Shown here piece by piece: positions 1,394 to 17,379 of a stretch of 64,000 nt of DNA. This stretch comes from an uncultured Bacteroidales bacterium (GTDB lineage: Bacteria > Bacteroidota > Bacteroidia > Bacteroidales > UBA4417): assembly GCA_963802185.1 (NCBI GenBank), contig CAWDHU010000017.1, positions 278,759 to 342,758 of the forward strand. The letters are read 5' to 3'. Below the pieces are notes generated by a model, which worked only from the letters and a program-made list of their open reading frames with translations, searched no databases and had not been told where the DNA came from. The stretch's first letter is position 1. Each line of letters begins with the position of its first letter. The position numbers were made by a program, and so were the translations under genes.

Positions 1394-1573
1394 ATTGCTT
1401 TTTTTTATCCTTGCAAATTTATTGTTACAAGATGAACCCAGTTAATTATATAAATATGGTTAAAATGACTTTCTAAATCAGGAAAGTAAATCAGAAAATA
1501 TTTTCATTAAACATATTCGATTTTTCATGATATGATCGTAAATTTACAAAACAAACCCCAAAAACTAATTATT

Positions 1574-2212
1574 ATGAAAACAAAAGTCGTATTAGCATTG
1601 ATGCTATTTTTGTCCTCAACAGTAGTGTTTGGACAATTGGATAAAGGAAATATTTTTATACAGGGAGCTAGTTCCTTAGGATTTAGTACTGAAAAATATA
1701 CCTACATTCATGGTGGAACTTCAACAGAATCATCAAAAACAACGTATTTTGATTTTAATCCCAAAGTTGGCTACTTCATAATTGATAATTTGCCGGCAGG
1801 ATTGGCAATAGATTTAAGTACAACAAAAACCAAAGCTATTGATAGTGATGATGAAAGTACAAGTAATAGTATTACAATTGGTCCGTTTGTCCGTTATTAT
1901 TTCTTACCACAGGGCAAACTTAAACCTATGGGAGAAGCATACATAGGTTTCGGTAGTTCGAAAAACAAATCTAGTTACTCAAGCTACACCTACGAAACAA
2001 AATACGGAATTATACAATATAGCATAGGTGTTGGCGGAAGTTACTTTTTAACTGATAATGTTGCTTTTGATTTACTAATAGGCTATAAATCATGTAAATA
2101 TAAGCTAAAATCAGAAAGCAGTCCTGCCAAAAGCACAGCAGCAGAAGATAGCAGCGATAAATATACAGGCATTGCTTTTAACTTTGGAATTGTTGTAATA
2201 ATTCCGAATTAG
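1574..2212 (+). CDS. Outer membrane beta-barrel protein (OmpA/PorT-like small barrel)
   Basis: Signal peptide MKTKVVLALMLFLSSTVVFG, alternating beta-strand pattern (PKVGYF, GPFVRYY, GGSYFL, FNFGIVVII). Start moved to the ATG at 1574. Confidence 0.8.
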   Translation: MKTKVVLALMLFLSSTVVFGQLDKGNIFIQGASSLGFSTEKYTYIHGGTSTESSKTTYFDFNPKVGYFIIDNLPAGLAIDLSTTKTKAIDSDDESTSNSITIGPFVRYYFLPQGKLKPMGEAYIGFGSSKNKSSYSSYTYETKYGIIQYSIGVGGSYFLTDNVAFDLLIGYKSCKYKLKSESSPAKSTAAEDSSDKYTGIAFNFGIVVIIPN

Positions 2213-2316
2213 CAAAAACCGGCTTCAGCTAAAGTTACCCGCGTAACCTAATGTTTTCTGAATGCCATTTATGATACAACAGGAAAGTAATAATTTACAC
2301 AAAGAGGCTAACCATT

Positions 2317-3606
2317 TTATTTCAGAATGGTTTCTTCCCTTCCCGGACCAGAAGAAAGTATCTTCACGGGAAGACCGACAGTTTTTTCGATAAATCCGGT
2401 ATATTCTTTTAACTTCCCTGGCAAAAGGTTGTAATCGCTTATTCCATGGAGTGAGTGTTTCCAACCGGGCAAAGCAGTGTATAAAGGTTTCACCGGGTTA
2501 CTCAGGGTTTCGTATGTAAGATCCTGGGTAGTTTGTCCGTTAACTTCATAACCGGTACAGATATTGATCGTTTCAAAGTCGTTCATCACATCCGCCTTCA
2601 TCATAACAAGGTCGGTAACACCATTGAGCATAATAGCATAACGCAGTGCAGGCAGATCGAGCCAGCCACAACGACGAGGGCGTCCTGTTGTGGACCCAAA
2701 CTCTTTTCCGCTATCCCGCAGGTTTTCACCGGTTTTATCATTTAATTCAGTGGGGAATGGGCCGCTACCAACGCGGGTACAATATGCTTTAAAAACACCG
2801 TAAACCTTACCAACCGCTGATGGTGGGATACCTAAGCCTGAGCATACTCCTGCCGTAATGGTATTTGAAGAAGTAACATAAGGATAAGATCCGAAATCCA
2901 CATCGAGTAGACTTCCCTGTGCGCCTTCAGCAAGAATTGCTTTCCCTTCGGCTAGCGCTTTATTAATATATAACTCACTGTCAATCAAAGGAAATGAACG
3001 AAGTTCCTCAATGGCTGCAAACCAGTTTTTCTCGTATTCTTCGAAAGAAACCTTATCGATAAGCTGAGCCTGGTAATCAAAGTTATAGGACGCTAAAATC
3101 TTGAGGTGACGTTGTTTGAGGTTATTATATTTCTCAGTAAAATCAGACGCCAGAATATCGCCGAATCGAAGACCGTACCGTGCAGTTTTGTCCGTATAAC
3201 ATGGACCAATGCCTTTGAGGGTAGAACCTATTTTTCCGGCACCCATAGCTTGCTCGTATGCTGCATCAAGCATCCGATGCGTTGGCAAAATAAGATGTGC
3301 ACGCTTCGAAATCCGCAGGTTCACTTTTGGATTAACTCCTTTAGACACCAATTGGGCAAGTTCCTGTGAAAGAATATATGGATCGGCTATTACACCATTG
3401 CCAATAATATTAATTTTTTCAGGATGAAATATTCCGGATGGAATGGTATGCAAAACATGCTTGTCGCCTTCAATTTGTAGTGTATGTCCGGCATTGGGTC
3501 CACCCTGGAACCTGGCAATTATATCATACTGGGGCGTAAGCACATCCACAATTTTTCCTTTTCCTTCGTCGCCCCATTGCAGGCCTAACAAAACATCTAC
3601 TTTCAT
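2317..3606 (-). CDS. purA: Adenylosuccinate synthetase
   Basis: GLQWGDEGKGK, GGPNAGHT, EGAQG and TTGRPRRCGW motifs. Confidence 0.98.
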   Translation of the reverse strand: MKVDVLLGLQWGDEGKGKIVDVLTPQYDIIARFQGGPNAGHTLQIEGDKHVLHTIPSGIFHPEKINIIGNGVIADPYILSQELAQLVSKGVNPKVNLRISKRAHLILPTHRMLDAAYEQAMGAGKIGSTLKGIGPCYTDKTARYGLRFGDILASDFTEKYNNLKQRHLKILASYNFDYQAQLIDKVSFEEYEKNWFAAIEELRSFPLIDSELYINKALAEGKAILAEGAQGSLLDVDFGSYPYVTSSNTITAGVCSGLGIPPSAVGKVYGVFKAYCTRVGSGPFPTELNDKTGENLRDSGKEFGSTTGRPRRCGWLDLPALRYAIMLNGVTDLVMMKADVMNDFETINICTGYEVNGQTTQDLTYETLSNPVKPLYTALPGWKHSLHGISDYNLLPGKLKEYTGFIEKTVGLPVKILSSGPGREETILK

Positions 3607-13234: not shown

Positions 13235-13265
13235 CTCCGGGCAATCATCGTTACCCGGAGTTTTT
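13235..13265 (+). terminator. Terminator between lepA and the convergent cysK
   Basis: CTCCGGG...CCCGGAG hairpin plus T run. Confidence 0.7.
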
Positions 13266-13287: not shown

Positions 13288-14202
13288 TTAACTGAACAGC
13301 CCTTCAACAGATAAGTATCGTTCCCCCGTATCATAATTAAAGGTAAGAATTCGGGATCTTGCAGGAATTTCAGATATCTTTTTAGCCACGGCGGCGAGCG
13401 AAGCTCCTGTCGAGATTCCTACAAAAATACCTTCCTGTCTTGTTATTTTTCGGGCATATTCAAAAGCAGCTTCTTTGCTTACCTGGATTACTCCATCGAT
13501 AAATTCACTTTTGTAAATTTGTGGTACAAACCCAGCACCTATACCTTGTATGGGATGAGGACCGGGAGCTCCCCCACTAAGAACGGGCGAAAGTTCAGGC
13601 TCCACAGCAAATACTTTTAACTTTGGAAACTTAATTTTCAGCACTTCAGCAATCCCTGTTATATGCCCGCCCGTTCCAACTCCAGTTATTATGTAATCAA
13701 GACCATCCGGAAAATCAGCCGCAATTTCGAGGGCCGTCGTCCTTTTATGCACTTCAACGTTAGCCTGGTTATTGAATTGCTGCGGTATCCATGAATGAGG
13801 GGTTGCTTCGGCCAATTCATTCGCTTTTTCAATAGCGCCTTTCATACCTTTTTCCCTGGGAGTCAGAACAAAATCAGCGCCATAAACCGACATCAGTTTA
13901 CGCCTTTCAACGCTCATCGATTCAGGCATAACCAGGATGATTTTATATCCTTTTACTGCAGCCACCAACGCCAGGCCTATACCTGTATTTCCGGATGTAG
14001 GCTCTATTATCACACTATCTTCTTTCAAAATGCCTCTTTTTTCAGCGTCTTCAATCATGGCTAAAGCGATTCTATCTTTAATGCTGTTGCCGGGATTGGT
14101 TCTTTCGAGCTTGATCCACACTTCATGTGAATGCCCAAAGAGCTTATTTATCCTTACATGCGGGGTGTTCCCTATGGTTTCTAAAATGTTATTTGCTTTC
14201 AT
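13288..14202 (-). CDS. cysK: Cysteine synthase A (O-acetylserine sulfhydrylase), copy 1
   Basis: PLP lysine motif [37 protein letters not shown]. Confidence 0.96.
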
Positions 14203-14281
14203 TTTTTAATGATTTTTAAGTGTTACTATTAAAATGTTAAAGGTTTTGAATTTTTCTTGATGAGAAACCTGCCGTTTTGTT

Positions 14282-14710
14282 TCAAAAAAACCTGGCATAC
14301 AACGTATATATTTTGCATCCAACACAAAATGCTAATGCCGACTCAAGTGAAGCAAAAAGGACAAGAATTCCTCCCAGTGTAAGTGTTACAAATGAGAATT
14401 GCAGAAAAACGGAAACGGTGAGTACAGCAGAGAGAATAAATCCCACTTTTGAAGCAAATTTTTTCCCGCCTGAATCGATTAGTTTTTCTTTAACATCAAT
14501 GATAGCAATAGTTTTTATTCCAATAAACCGGAATAAACTCCATTCTTTTTTATTGAAACCTCGTACGAAGAAATCAAATGCGAGAAACAGAAAAATCACA
14601 GGTGATTGAAAATAAATACCAATTGCGGCCGTAATTGCAACAAGTGCTGCTACTACTCTCACTGTTGGTTCGTTTATGAGGGTTCCCTCGATTGGACAGA
14701 TATGTGCCAT
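14282..14710 (-). CDS. DUF4395-like small membrane protein
   Basis: N-terminal CP...INE..VR, four hydrophobic segments, KKFASKVG and C-terminal ESALAFCVGCKIY, which fits DUF4395 as I recall it. Confidence 0.75.
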   Translation of the reverse strand: MAHICPIEGTLINEPTVRVVAALVAITAAIGIYFQSPVIFLFLAFDFFVRGFNKKEWSLFRFIGIKTIAIIDVKEKLIDSGGKKFASKVGFILSAVLTVSVFLQFSFVTLTLGGILVLFASLESALAFCVGCKIYTLYARFF

Positions 14711-14763
14711 GATTTATTAATTCGAAAGTGAATGATTTACTTGAATTATTTAAGGTTTGTTTG

Positions 14764-14804
14764 AAAACGAAAAAGCCCTTTCACACTGTTGCGGAAGGGC
14801 TTTT
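14764..14804 (-). terminator. Attenuator terminator 2 (proximal)
   Basis: Minus strand GCCCTTCCGCA-ACAG-TGTGAAAGGGC followed by TTTTTCGTTTT, about 55 nt before the DUF4395 start. Confidence 0.85.
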
Positions 14805-14833
14805 AAAATTTATACTTGTTGCAAATATTTCTT

Positions 14834-14938
14834 TCAACAGAGCATAGAATAACCAATCCGCAATTGCAGACTCATACAACAACAGCAGCTATTTACTGAT
14901 CCAGATGAATGATTGGTGATTATGGATTGTGCTACCAT
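14834..14938 (-). CDS. Cys-rich leader peptide 2 (34 aa) MVAQSIITNHSSGSVNSCCCCMSLQLRIGYSMLC
   Basis: Manual translation of the minus strand: four consecutive Cys codons (TGC TGT TGT TGT), located between two terminators upstream of cysK. Confidence 0.8.
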   Translation of the reverse strand: MVAQSIITNHSSGSVNSCCCCMSLQLRIGYSMLC

Positions 14939-14961
14939 AAAGTAAATTTTGACTGATGGAA

Positions 14962-14993
14962 TAAAAAAAAGGCTCCCCGTTTTCGGAAAGCCT
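14962..14993 (-). terminator. Attenuator terminator 1 (distal)
   Basis: Minus strand AGGCTTTCCG-AAAA-CGGGGAGCCT followed by T7. Confidence 0.85.
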
Positions 14994-15036
14994 GTTTCTT
15001 TAAAAAAATCTTTTTATTTAAGAAAAGCTCTCCATA

Positions 15037-15108
15037 CTAAATACTCATACAACAACACATCATTATGCTGTTGAAAGGATTTAGAATAACCAGAGCTTTG
15101 TGAATCAT
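15037..15108 (-). CDS. Cys-rich leader peptide 1 (23 aa) MIHKALVILNPFNSIMMCCCMSI
   Basis: Manual translation: ATG ATG TGT TGT TGT ATG AGT ATT TAG, with an A-rich start context about 20 nt downstream of a TAnnTTTG promoter. Confidence 0.82.
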   Translation of the reverse strand: MIHKALVILNPFNSIMMCCCMSI

Positions 15109-15127
15109 TGTTTCAATTATTGAATTG

Positions 15128-15135
15128 CAAAAATA
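15128..15135 (-). promoter_or_regulatory. Bacteroidota primary-sigma -7 element for the leader-DUF4395-cysK operon
   Basis: TATTTTTG on the minus strand matches TAnnTTTG. Confidence 0.7.
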
Positions 15136-15624
15136 CAGATTACTTTTAAGCAAAAACATTAATTTTTTGAGTTTAAATCCTTCTGATAGCTACATCCTAA
15201 TGATATCAATGGTTTGCTAAATAAGTTAATGTTTTGTTAATCCTATAAAAGCCGGTCTGTTTCAACAGTTTACCTCTGGTTAGGATTAATTACATGGGAA
15301 TAATAATCGTTTATAAAAGGGTGTTATGCAAGAAAAGGGGTATATAACTGAAAGCTATAGTGAGCATGAAAGCTGCAAGAATTCAGGCTTATGCATTATT
15401 ATTTGGAGTTAATTCTCCTGATCAATTTAAATTGCCAGCCAGCCTGGATAGACAACATGTATACTAATCAACTACTTTTGCATAAAATTACCAGTAAAAT
15501 TCCTCACTAATAGCTCCTCAAATTCTATCTCATACTTTTAAGCAAATTTTGGCCCTGCTGAACAAAGGCCGGAACCTGCTGTTAATCCACTAGGATATAA
15601 ATTAATATTCAATATATTTCACTG

Positions 15625-16464
15625 ATGAATCCATTATCTCAATTACCCAAAGAAATTTACCGGAGTTATGTAATTTCTCATGCCAATCTTCCGCCGGTTG
15701 AGAGCACCCAGCAGTTTGTGGATGAGCTTGTCATGTTTTTATTCCCGCTAAAAGGTAATCGTACGGTTTCCTTAAAATCATTACAGGTTGAATTGCGCAG
15801 GTTACGTTTCCGGCTCAGCGAACTTCTTTTCCCGTTGCACGATGATGCAGAAGAAGAAGTAACAAAGGTGGTAGAATCATTTTTTAACCGCCTGCCCGAT
15901 ATTTATGAAATGATGCTGAATGATGCAGATGTGTTTCTGAACAGCGATCCATCAGCAAAAGGGATTGAAGAAGTAATAATGTCATTTCCGGGATTTTATG
16001 CCATATCCGTTTACCGGATTGCACATGAACTTTGTTTATTAAAAGTGCCGTTGCTACCCAGGATTATGAGTGAATACATTCATGGTAAAACAGGTATTGA
16101 TATTCATCCGGCAGCCAAAATAGGAAAGAATTTCTTTATCGATCATGGAACCGGAGTTGTAATCGGTGAAACAACAGAAATTGGTGACAATGTTAAAATA
16201 TACCAGGGAGTAACACTGGGAGCAATGTTTGTTGAACGTGCACTTCGCGATCAGAAACGGCACCCAACTATTCAGGATAATGTAATTATTTATGCCGGTA
16301 GTACTATTTTAGGCGGGAAAACTGTAATAGGACGTAATTCGGTAATCGGCGGTACTGTATGGCTTACCGAAAGTGTTGAACCATTTTCTTTGGTTTATCA
16401 TAAGCCCCAGATCGTAATCCGCGATAAAAAAGATTTTGTTGAACCAATTAACTTCTTTATCTAA
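15625..16464 (+). CDS. cysE: Serine O-acetyltransferase (CysE/EpsC type)
   Basis: DPSA, YRIAHEL, GIDIHPAAKIG, FFIDHGTGVVIGET, QGVTLG, KRHPT. C-terminal Ile; the stop abuts the cysK ATG. Confidence 0.95.
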   Translation: MNPLSQLPKEIYRSYVISHANLPPVESTQQFVDELVMFLFPLKGNRTVSLKSLQVELRRLRFRLSELLFPLHDDAEEEVTKVVESFFNRLPDIYEMMLNDADVFLNSDPSAKGIEEVIMSFPGFYAISVYRIAHELCLLKVPLLPRIMSEYIHGKTGIDIHPAAKIGKNFFIDHGTGVVIGETTEIGDNVKIYQGVTLGAMFVERALRDQKRHPTIQDNVIIYAGSTILGGKTVIGRNSVIGGTVWLTESVEPFSLVYHKPQIVIRDKKDFVEPINFFI

Positions 16465-17379
16465 ATGAAAGCAAACTCAATACTTCAAACCATAGGAAAC
16501 ACGCCTCATGTTCGTATCAACAAGCTTTTCCCTTCGCAATACGAAGTGTGGATCAAGCTCGAACAAGCCAATCCTGGTGGTAGCATCAAAGACCGCATTG
16601 CACTCTCGATGGTGGAGGACGCTGAAAAACGTGGTATATTGAAACCAGGTTCCGTAATCATTGAGCCAACATCCGGAAATACTGGAATCGGGCTCGCAAT
16701 GGTTAGCGCAGTTAAAGGTTATAAGCTAATACTGGTAATGCCCGAATCTATGAGCATTGAAAGGCGTAAACTGATGTCGGTTTATGGTGCTGAGTTTGTA
16801 CTTACGCCACGTGAAAAAGGGATGAAAGGCGCCATAGAAAAAGCAAAAGAACTTGCCGAAGAAACTTCCATGTCGTGGATTCCGGGGCAATTTGAAAATC
16901 CTGCCAATCCAAACATTCACTTCGAAACAACGGCTCGTGAAATTGCGGCTGATTTCCCTGATGGACTTGATTTCATAATAACCGGAGTTGGTACAGGAGG
17001 TCACATTTCGGGTGTGAGCAAATACCTGAAATCACTCTGGCCTGATTTGAAAGTATTTGCCGTTGAGCCGGAACTATCGCCCGTAATCAGCGGAGGAGCG
17101 CCTGGCCCCCACCCGTTACAAGGTATTGGTGCAGGTTTTGTTCCAAAAAATCTTGATACAAGTCTTCTTGACGGAGTAATTGGTGTATCGAAAGAAAGCG
17201 CTTTTGATTTTGCCCGGCGCCTGGCAAAGGAAGAGGCTATTTTTGCCGGGATTTCTACAGGTGCTTCGTTGGCAGCAGTAAGTAAAAAACTGGCTGAAAT
17301 ACCTGAAGGCTCACGAATACTGACATTTAATTACGATACAGGCGAACGATATCTTTCCATTGAAGGGTTGTGGGAATAA
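16465..17379 (+). CDS. cysK: Cysteine synthase A, copy 2
   Basis: [41 protein letters not shown]. Confidence 0.96.

Follow-up and report, generated by a model that had tools for sequence, protein, structure and literature searches.

Two predicted cysteine-sensing transcription attenuators in series in the leader of a DUF4395-cysK operon from an uncultured Bacteroidales bacterium

The subject of this analysis is a 64,000-nucleotide (nt) stretch of DNA from an uncultured Bacteroidales bacterium, referred to below as the window, and within it the leader of an operon that encodes a DUF4395 membrane protein and the O-acetylserine sulfhydrylase CysK. This leader probably contains two ribosome-mediated transcription attenuators in series that sense Cys-tRNA, each consisting of a short open reading frame (ORF) with a run of Cys codons, an antiterminator strand, and an intrinsic terminator. 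An earlier note on this DNA had already read the region as serial Cys-codon attenuators with intrinsic terminators, and that core reading is strengthened here: the tandem is conserved across diverged genomes with different sulfur-amino-acid genes behind it, each unit has a conserved antiterminator opposed to its terminator, and a promoter box between the units is absent from all 12 tandem loci in which the spacer was inspected. The parts themselves, their conservation, their geometry, and their gene context are direct observations.

All coordinates refer to the window unless stated otherwise, and the leader and the operon genes all lie on the minus strand. The leader opens with a Bacteroidota-type -7 promoter box, TATTTTTG (15128..15135), read from the sequence as an instance of TAnnTTTG, which we take to be the Bacteroides -7 promoter consensus. 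Leader ORF 1 (15037..15108) runs from an ATG at 15108 through 23 codons to a TAG at 15039-15037 and encodes the peptide MIHKALVILNPFNSIMMCCCMSI, with MMCCCMSI at its C terminus; its three Cys codons, all TGT (15049..15057), are the proposed stall site. Terminator 1 (14962..14993; hairpin energy -19.6 kcal/mol) comprises region 3 (14993-14984), region 4 (14979-14970), and a T run, and its stem (14993-14970) has 10 pairs, 6 of them G-C. After about two dozen bases follows leader ORF 2 (14834..14938), with 34 codons and a TGA, which encodes the peptide MVAQSIITNHSSGSVNSCCCCMSLQLRIGYSMLC and carries CCCC in mid-peptide (TGC TGT TGT TGT, 14876..14887). Terminator 2 (14764..14804) is likewise built from region 3 (14804-14790), region 4 (14785-14771), and a T run; a pattern scan for terminators did not pick it up, but RNAfold does find it, as a hairpin of -17.3 kcal/mol. 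The first regulated gene is that of the DUF4395 protein (14282..14710; Pfam PF14340, E 5.7e-27; without an NCBIfam match), followed by cysK (13288..14202; TIGR01139, 404 bits against a cut-off of 351). The promoter box, both leaders, and both terminators were found base for base at the coordinates given in the earlier note, and the two genes follow them in the order that it had stated.

Several features set this leader apart from its surroundings. The 15-nt core that the note had described as shared by the two leaders has exactly two copies in the window and none in the rest of the 5.5-Mb genome; with up to two mismatches allowed, 0.19 matches were expected, and two or more matches occurred in 2 of 100 shuffles. 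The accompanying statement that the leaders are otherwise unrelated does not extend to their design, as both units consist of a Cys run, an antiterminator strand, and a terminator. Compared to shuffled sequences, the fold of unit 1 has z = -4.83 (none of 200 shuffles as stable) and that of unit 2 has z = -2.55 (1 of 200). A script that scanned the 5.5-Mb genome for a hairpin and T run behind an ATG ORF of 8-60 aa that contains a Cys cluster returned 21 candidates, 19 of which lie wholly within ORFs of at least 150 aa; the only intergenic ones are the two at the DUF4395-cysK locus.

A search with the DUF4395 protein brought up five close loci in metagenome-assembled genomes of Bacteroidales, and both leader ORFs and both terminators were present in all five. 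In two of these, the gene behind the tandem is metY, which encodes an O-acetylhomoserine sulfhydrylase of 434 aa (TIGR01326, 675 bits) and itself precedes DUF4395-cysK. Covariance models were made of unit 1 (R1) and unit 2 (R2), and R1 matched 15 places in 12 of the 45 genomes of the window's family, comprising 12 intact tandems, one lone unit 1 (L053), and two decayed copies (L054 and L055). The thirteenth of these 45 genomes to carry the tandem is G189, at whose locus (L065) GTG replaces ATG as the start of leader 1 (oriented coordinates 1011-1082); the sole in-frame ATG would give an 8-codon ORF that still includes the Cys codons, and R1 gives this copy no score, even with filters off. A metagenome scan with a DUF4395 alignment yielded 11 further loci, and in five of these (4 distinct sequences) unit 1 is followed by unit 2 as in the window. 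No leader was found in the other six, of which five have at most 1569 nt of upstream sequence and one (L187) has 3000 nt with no match. Of the 13 intact tandems, six are followed first by metY, six by DUF4395-cysK, and one by a cysE-like gene and then cysK; the first gene thus varies, yet is always a sulfur-amino-acid gene.

The coding features of the leaders are conserved as well. In all related loci the short ORFs have start and stop codons in frame and lie upstream of, and separate from, the first structural gene, with leader 1 homologues of 21-24 codons in all related loci and leader 2 homologues of 27-36 codons in 12 of 12 tandem loci. Each ORF contains 3-7 Cys codons (13 unit-1 and 12 unit-2 copies), and runs of 3-5 of these stay in frame in every copy despite insertions and deletions. 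The 13 unit-1 ORFs have 49 Cys codons, 39 TGT and 10 TGC, and the two units together have 80 TGT and 27 TGC; the variation at these codons is therefore synonymous only. The distance from the TAnnTTTG box to the leader-1 ATG is 18-19 nt in 12 of 13 loci (28 nt in L049), while the spacer of 13-23 nt between terminator 1 and the leader-2 ATG holds no such box in any of 12 loci, indicating that unit 2 would depend on read-through of unit 1. Both units end with a G+C-rich hairpin followed by a T run of 5-9, and across the loci the hairpin energies range from -11.1 to -20.1 kcal/mol for terminator 1 and from -14.6 to -22.8 kcal/mol for terminator 2, whose helix is 95.8% paired on the unit 2 alignment (A5).

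The two decayed places are second copies of the element, L054 in genome G173 and L055 in genome G170 (about 1500-2200 in oriented coordinates), and adjoin lepA, which is also a neighbour of the element in the window. Both leader ORFs remain open in these copies, and terminator 1 is weaker, the T run of terminator 2 is lost, DUF4395 is gone, and cysK is reduced to a C-terminal fragment. At a separate locus (L069, genome G175), a DUF4395 fragment is still found beside lepA.

Beyond the ORFs and terminators, to which the earlier note had confined itself, each unit is predicted to contain a strand whose pairing partner is the 5' arm of the terminator in that unit. In unit 1, this antiterminator strand is region 2, GGAGAGCTT (15025..15033), and folding places it opposite the terminator arm at 14993-14985 in a duplex of -16.5 kcal/mol, as good as which only 1 of 300 shuffles was found. 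The duplex ranges from -11.1 to -16.8 kcal/mol in 13 of 13 loci, with at most 3 of 300 dinucleotide shuffles equal. On the alignment of unit 1 from the stop codon onward (A4), 94.0% of antiterminator cells are paired, compared to 33-71% in controls in which the pairing partner was slid by 1-3 columns. The A4 counts are lowered by the row for L052, which is one column off in region 3, and an anchor-based count made alongside with five more sequences gave 7-9 of 9 pairs in 18 of 18. The strand starts 5 nt past the stop codon in 17 of these 18 sequences and 3 nt past it in the window, so that it would lie under a ribosome that has reached the stop codon. A ribosome on the Cys codons, which are 5-7 codons further upstream than the strand, would leave it uncovered. 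Region 2 has a second potential partner in region 1 (15092..15099), the 5' strand of a long leader hairpin that is present in both the RNAfold minimum-free-energy structure and the RNAalifold consensus.

In unit 2, the predicted antiterminator strand (region 2, 14851..14863) lies within the ORF, 6-17 nt past the last Cys codon of the run. Its duplex with the terminator arm has an energy of -16.4 kcal/mol in the window (1 of 300 shuffles as good) and of -11.6 to -20.1 kcal/mol across 12 of 12 loci, and 81.8% of its cells are paired on A5 compared to 40-49% when slid. The 5' part of the strand is also predicted to pair with region 1, the 10 nt immediately 3' of the Cys run (14866..14875; local fold -9.3 kcal/mol), in a helix that is 70.5% paired on A5 compared to 37-55% when slid. 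As modelled, unit 2 is therefore the classical 1:2 / 2:3 / 3:4 arrangement of alternative helices. The three most distant loci use another antiterminator register, in which the K-G-F codons pair with the start of the terminator arm, so that the pairing is kept and the sequence has changed.

These pairings bear on whether the two ORFs might instead encode small Cys-rich peptides, or belong to dual-function small RNAs, that serve some separate role (e.g., related to metals or redox), have their own terminators, and are neighbours of the cys genes rather than their regulators. Each ORF does keep a recognisable sequence, ILN...MMCCCM in unit 1 and ...RNG/KGF... in unit 2, and each is followed by a strong terminator, as such genes might be. 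However, variation is free in the N-terminal half of the peptides, the KGF and RNG codons that are conserved fall on the strand that pairs in the RNA, and the conserved bases of region 2 in unit 1 lie outside the ORF and pair with the terminator arm in all 18 sequences. Additionally, a peptide gene in unit 2 would be without a promoter box, and the element as a whole travels with different sulfur-amino-acid genes and decays once the genes downstream of it are lost. We consider peptide genes a very unlikely explanation.

From the arrangement of the two units as serial attenuators, we infer leader translation, ribosome stalling, termination, and an effect of the tandem as follows. Transcription would start a few bases past the TAnnTTTG box, with one promoter feeding two serial decisions, each of which would be set by the position of the ribosome on the Cys-rich leader when the polymerase makes the terminator. 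In unit 1, when cysteine is ample, the ribosome would pass the CCC and proceed to the stop codon, where it would cover the antiterminator strand, allowing the terminator hairpin to form and transcription to end. When cysteine, and with it charged tRNA-Cys, is scarce, it would stall on the Cys codons, 5-7 codons short of the strand, which would then pair with the emerging 5' arm of the terminator and allow the polymerase to read on. In unit 2, region 1, which follows the CCCC, would sequester region 2 inside the ORF, and a ribosome stalled on the Cys run would cover region 1 and free region 2 to pair with region 3. Given that unit 2 has no promoter of its own, expression would approximate the product of two read-through probabilities, low with ample cysteine and rising more steeply upon starvation. 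By analogy with tandem riboswitches, the tandem might both lower the basal level and steepen the response.

It is also possible that methionine serves as a second input, given that Met is enriched beside the Cys runs and that metY follows about half of the tandems. A Met lies at most two residues from the Cys run in 11 of the 13 ORFs of unit 1 and in 9 of the 12 ORFs of unit 2, and in unit 1 the Met ATG codons beside the run also form the loop of the leader hairpin.

The proposed geometry was modelled by folding nascent RNA cut just before region 4 and averaging the pair probabilities within the antiterminator. This mean was 0.88-0.95 in unit 1 and 0.81-0.89 in unit 2 when a ribosome footprint covered the Cys codons, compared to 0.17 and 0.36, respectively, when it covered the stop codon. 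In this model, unit 1 behaves as expected for an antiterminator that is freed by a stall and blocked by a ribosome at the stop codon, and unit 2 does so in part.

A number of results nevertheless weigh against attenuation of this kind. In the same cut RNA, the antiterminator still forms when no ribosome is present (0.80 in unit 1 and 0.75 in unit 2), so that, on energy alone, termination in an untranslated leader would not be predicted. In full-length RNA at equilibrium, the terminator is dominant in most sequences under any ribosome mask. As equilibrium folds are indifferent to these masks, the modelled switch would have to be kinetic, and since attenuation is kinetic, equilibrium folding of full-length units with ribosome masks was dropped as a test; its outcome was to be expected, yet provides no support. 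In unit 1, a long distance separates region 1 from the Cys codons downstream of it, and conservation of this region is poor in distant loci, and the unit 2 duplex clearly beats its shuffles (at most 5 of 300 as good) in 7 of 12 loci, with 11-77 of 300 as good in the other five. Covariation is modest, with 2 pairs per antiterminator changed on both sides, a number that 39 and 38 of 500 shuffles reach for the two antiterminators, and this weakness is attributable to the sequences being close relatives. Similarly, native combinations of regions 2 and 3 form 8.44 pairs and swapped ones 8.26, with 150 of 5000 permutations as good. We know of no Shine-Dalgarno-led initiation in Bacteroidota, and sequence therefore cannot predict whether the short ORFs are translated. 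Finally, the tandem carriers with known record titles are all uncultured metagenome-assembled genomes.

The failure of ribosome masks to displace the terminators at equilibrium would also suit poly-Cys leaders that act otherwise than on transcription termination. The mycobacterial mechanism is of this type, and is the only one shown by experiment for poly-Cys leaders, as far as the accessible part of the relevant paper goes (Canestrari et al., 10.1101/834739). Against this, the hairpins and T runs that close both units have the form of intrinsic terminators, the strand that a stalled ribosome would free pairs in the models with the terminator arm and not with a start region, and the DUF4395 start, approximately 54 nt past terminator 2, is part of neither alternative structure. 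In our judgement, an action away from termination is just as unlikely as the peptide genes considered above.

To place the two units in a wider context, we consider their distribution outside the window's family. R1 was run on one genome per family of the order (151 genomes, approximately 148 other families) and found nothing real outside the window's family. Besides the window, it gave 14 weak matches (E 4e-4 to 9e-3), all of which were judged false: the script found no Cys-cluster ORF at 11 of these, L031 and L037 are terminators at the ends of long genes, and at L039 the Cys ORF is on the strand opposite to the match.

The earlier note had suggested searching the upstream regions of Bacteroidota cys genes for poly-Cys ORFs followed by a terminator. 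Single units of this kind were found at the level of both the order and the class. A protein-led survey took in 89 cysK loci in 79 further genomes of the order, excluding one place at a contig edge. On the cysK strand and outside long ORFs, nine of these loci contain an ATG ORF of 8-60 aa that includes a Cys cluster. In seven of the 89 (L075, L082, L088, L092, L093, L137, and L155), a hairpin with a T run lies no more than 170 nt beyond such an ORF, and the element immediately precedes cysE-cysK or cysK. The reverse strand of these 89 loci, which served as a control, has a Cys-cluster ORF in five loci and an ORF with a terminator in none. Each of the seven is a single unit whose candidate antiterminator strand lies 11-27 nt past the Cys cluster, and these strands are individually weak, with 6-124 of 300 shuffles as good. 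A class-level sample from other orders contained 11 loci with a close cysK, five of which have an upstream ORF with at least three clustered Cys before cysE-cysK; an ORF of this kind together with a terminator was found in four of the 11, and the reverse strand held only two-Cys ORFs.

When R2 was applied to the cysK loci of other families, it matched L093 (E 1e-6) and L082 (E 1e-4), one of which has the M-x-CCC...KGF pattern also seen in distant tandem loci. R2 gave off-target matches at E 0.004-0.03, and weaker matches were therefore not counted, so that support for relatedness comes from L093 and L082 only. These results suggest a widespread single-unit Cys attenuator of which unit 2 may be the local version, and to which unit 1 may have been added in the window's clade.

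The recurrence of the design is also relevant to a further explanation, that a ligand, a protein, or a small RNA controls the conserved structures and that the Cys-rich ORFs are incidental. Alternative terminator and antiterminator structures would serve any such mechanism, and the formation of the antiterminator without a ribosome in cut nascent RNA is consistent with it. Yet the combination of a Cys ORF and a terminator recurs with unrelated sequence in other families and orders, the Cys runs are in frame with start and stop codons in every copy, and the spacing from stop codon to antiterminator is fixed. Nor do the units have a conserved, pocket-like multi-helix structure, only a leader hairpin and a terminator. 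No Rfam family reached its gathering threshold at positions 14000-16000 of the window, where the best scores were 27.1 bits against 65 for PyrG_leader and 26.2 against 55 for Phe_leader, and a gathering-threshold search of 10 related loci gave no matches, with the His, Leu, Thr, Trp, and Phe leaders and Bacteroid-trp included. We regard such control as very improbable. As for a chance pair of short ORFs and hairpins in an A+T-rich spacer, both of these are common, and a 3-kb region holds 3 terminator-like sites with 2.1 expected from shuffles, but conservation in 13 genomes and further metagenome contigs, the standing of this locus as the only intergenic case in the genome, and the reverse-strand control with 0 of 89 leave this with almost no probability.

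Serial Cys-codon attenuators would resemble a number of known systems. Classical leader-peptide attenuators control the trp, his, leu, thr, pheA, and ilv operons of enterobacteria. The units described here share with them a short leader ORF with a run of cognate codons, an intrinsic terminator before the first gene, an antiterminator that competes for the 5' arm, and, as proposed here, a structure decided by the position of the ribosome; unit 2 has, by prediction, the full 1:2 / 2:3 / 3:4 layout. They differ in that cysteine would be sensed, that the host is an uncultured Bacteroidales bacterium, and that two complete units stand in series under one promoter. Unit 1 differs further, as its Cys codons lie 2-3 codons from the stop codon, its antiterminator just past the stop codon, and its region 1 far upstream. 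Within the Bacteroidetes, the Bacteroid-trp RNA and predicted leader-peptide attenuators, attributed to Weinberg 2010 and Vitreschak 2004, are said to concern Trp, His, Leu, Thr, and branched-chain operons; these likewise indicate leader-peptide attenuation in the phylum, but not for cysteine.

Two sensing units in one leader are known from tandem riboswitches and T-boxes. In the mgtCBR leader of Salmonella, the two leader ORFs reportedly answer to different signals. With both, as well as with the tandem leader-ORF attenuators described for mgtCBR (PMC3641672, in its accessible part), the leader described here has in common that two sensing units precede one operon. Unlike in mgtCBR, both units here carry Cys runs, so that the tandem would multiply one signal, and the two units here differ in layout.

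Cys-codon leaders themselves have been described outside the Bacteroidota, and the comparisons that follow extend to the accessible parts of the papers cited. The polycysteine leaderless short ORFs of mycobacteria unmask a ribosome-binding site (Canestrari et al., 10.1101/834739). These too have Cys runs in a short upstream ORF, report cysteine supply through stalling, and occur at several cysteine-related loci; in the leader analysed here, however, each ORF has an intrinsic terminator and a predicted competing antiterminator, and the DUF4395 start lies outside the alternative structures. Similarity in sequence to the mycobacterial ORFs is not to be expected. Comparative genomics has identified candidate Cys leader peptides for the cys operons and cbs of Actinobacteria (Seliverstov et al. 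2005, PMC1262725), which similarly are short ORFs with Cys-codon runs near the stop codon, upstream of cysteine genes. These are stated to have no conserved terminator hairpins, and Rho-dependent termination was suggested (PMC1262725), in contrast with the hairpin and T run in both units here. The uORFC-8-2 motif, found before cysS in Rhodobacterales, is likewise predicted to be a ribosome-mediated attenuator; its upstream ORF carries tandem Cys codons, and it has an intrinsic terminator stem followed by a U run (Brewer et al. 2021, PMC8632094). This motif has two Cys codons and a single unit, controls a Cys-tRNA synthetase gene in alphaproteobacteria and not biosynthesis genes, is unrelated in sequence and structure to the units described here, and is itself a prediction (PMC8632094).

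Papers on the transcriptome of Flavobacterium psychrophilum (PMC9723704) and on Bacteroides thetaiotaomicron (PMC7366714) contain, in their accessible parts, general remarks on leader-peptide attenuation, and open-access full texts and preprints yielded no description of a Cys attenuator for Bacteroidota. The note's statement that it was aware of no characterised equivalent in Bacteroidota thus agrees with both Rfam and the open-access literature, but the uniqueness that this implied is tempered by the single-unit relatives that are widespread in the class and by the Cys-codon upstream ORF with an intrinsic terminator predicted before cysS in Rhodobacterales (PMC8632094, accessible part).

Taken together, it is conceivable that poly-Cys attenuators are a class-wide means of controlling cysteine synthesis in Bacteroidia, as a single unit before cysE-cysK in several orders, and that the window's clade stacked a second, differently built unit, with an antiterminator guarded by the stop codon, before the ancestral one and spread the device to metY, DUF4395, and a SusC/RagA-type TonB-dependent receptor. 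We put this broader picture forward tentatively, as one whose chances fall somewhat short of even. Should it be correct, it would define a regulon of cysteine, and perhaps methionine, read by the ribosome and would suggest a sulfur-related role for DUF4395. Cys-codon leaders are already known in Actinobacteria and predicted in Rhodobacterales; what appears to be new, as judged from sequence, is that genes for cysteine and methionine biosynthesis in Bacteroidia would be under termination-based Cys attenuation, with two units of it at this locus.

The regulation of cysteine synthesis in Bacteroidota is, to our knowledge, largely uncharted, and no paper on it was found among open-access full texts and preprints. 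An attenuator that can be recognised in sequence would provide a direct, testable handle on it. If the units act as proposed, cysteine would join the amino acids under classical termination-based leader-peptide attenuation, and the tandem would be a natural example of two of these units placed one after the other, in which to ask whether stacking makes a ribosome-read signal sharper. Moreover, gene callers do not see the short ORFs, and a new leader family would be a gain for both annotation pipelines and Rfam.

The lone unit 1 in the family (L053, genome G182, oriented coordinates 1500-3169) has a five-Cys leader, an antiterminator strand, and a terminator, and lies approximately 210 nt upstream of a gene for the SusC/RagA-type TonB-dependent receptor. 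Given this position, the receptor may import a sulfur compound. Co-regulation would mark both the receptor and DUF4395 as candidates for sulfur or cysteine acquisition.

Throughout the clade, DUF4395 is, by gene context, co-regulated with cysK or metY. The protein keeps Cys residues near both ends, C5 at one and C129 and C132, in a CxxC motif, at the other. Its distant homologues (27-37% identity) are found mainly in genomes of Campylobacterota, such as Sulfurimonas and Sulfurovum, and at a distant locus of the family (L068) an ORF two genes downstream of DUF4395 contains a WxxWC motif, which we take to be thioredoxin-like. DUF4395 likely has a sulfur-related membrane function.

Some further features of the leaders and of the window were also observed. 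Several unit 2 peptides have a second Cys or Cys pair near the C terminus (e.g., ...MLC, ...SCCK, and ...PGCK), and the corresponding codons are part of a small hairpin (TGTTG with CAACA) that is conserved and extends across the stop codon. On the minus strand 3' of cysK, a terminator-like hairpin (13235..13260) is probably the end of the operon. Divergent from the leader, the plus strand at 15625-17379 holds a cysE-like serine acetyltransferase gene (TIGR01172, 155.7 bits, below the cut-off of 210.65) and a second cysK. No Cys-cluster ORF precedes this gene and the second cysK paired with it, although in other families and orders it is exactly cysE-cysK that a Cys leader precedes. This second cysK is located directly 3' of the cysE-like gene and is 77% identical to the cysK behind DUF4395.

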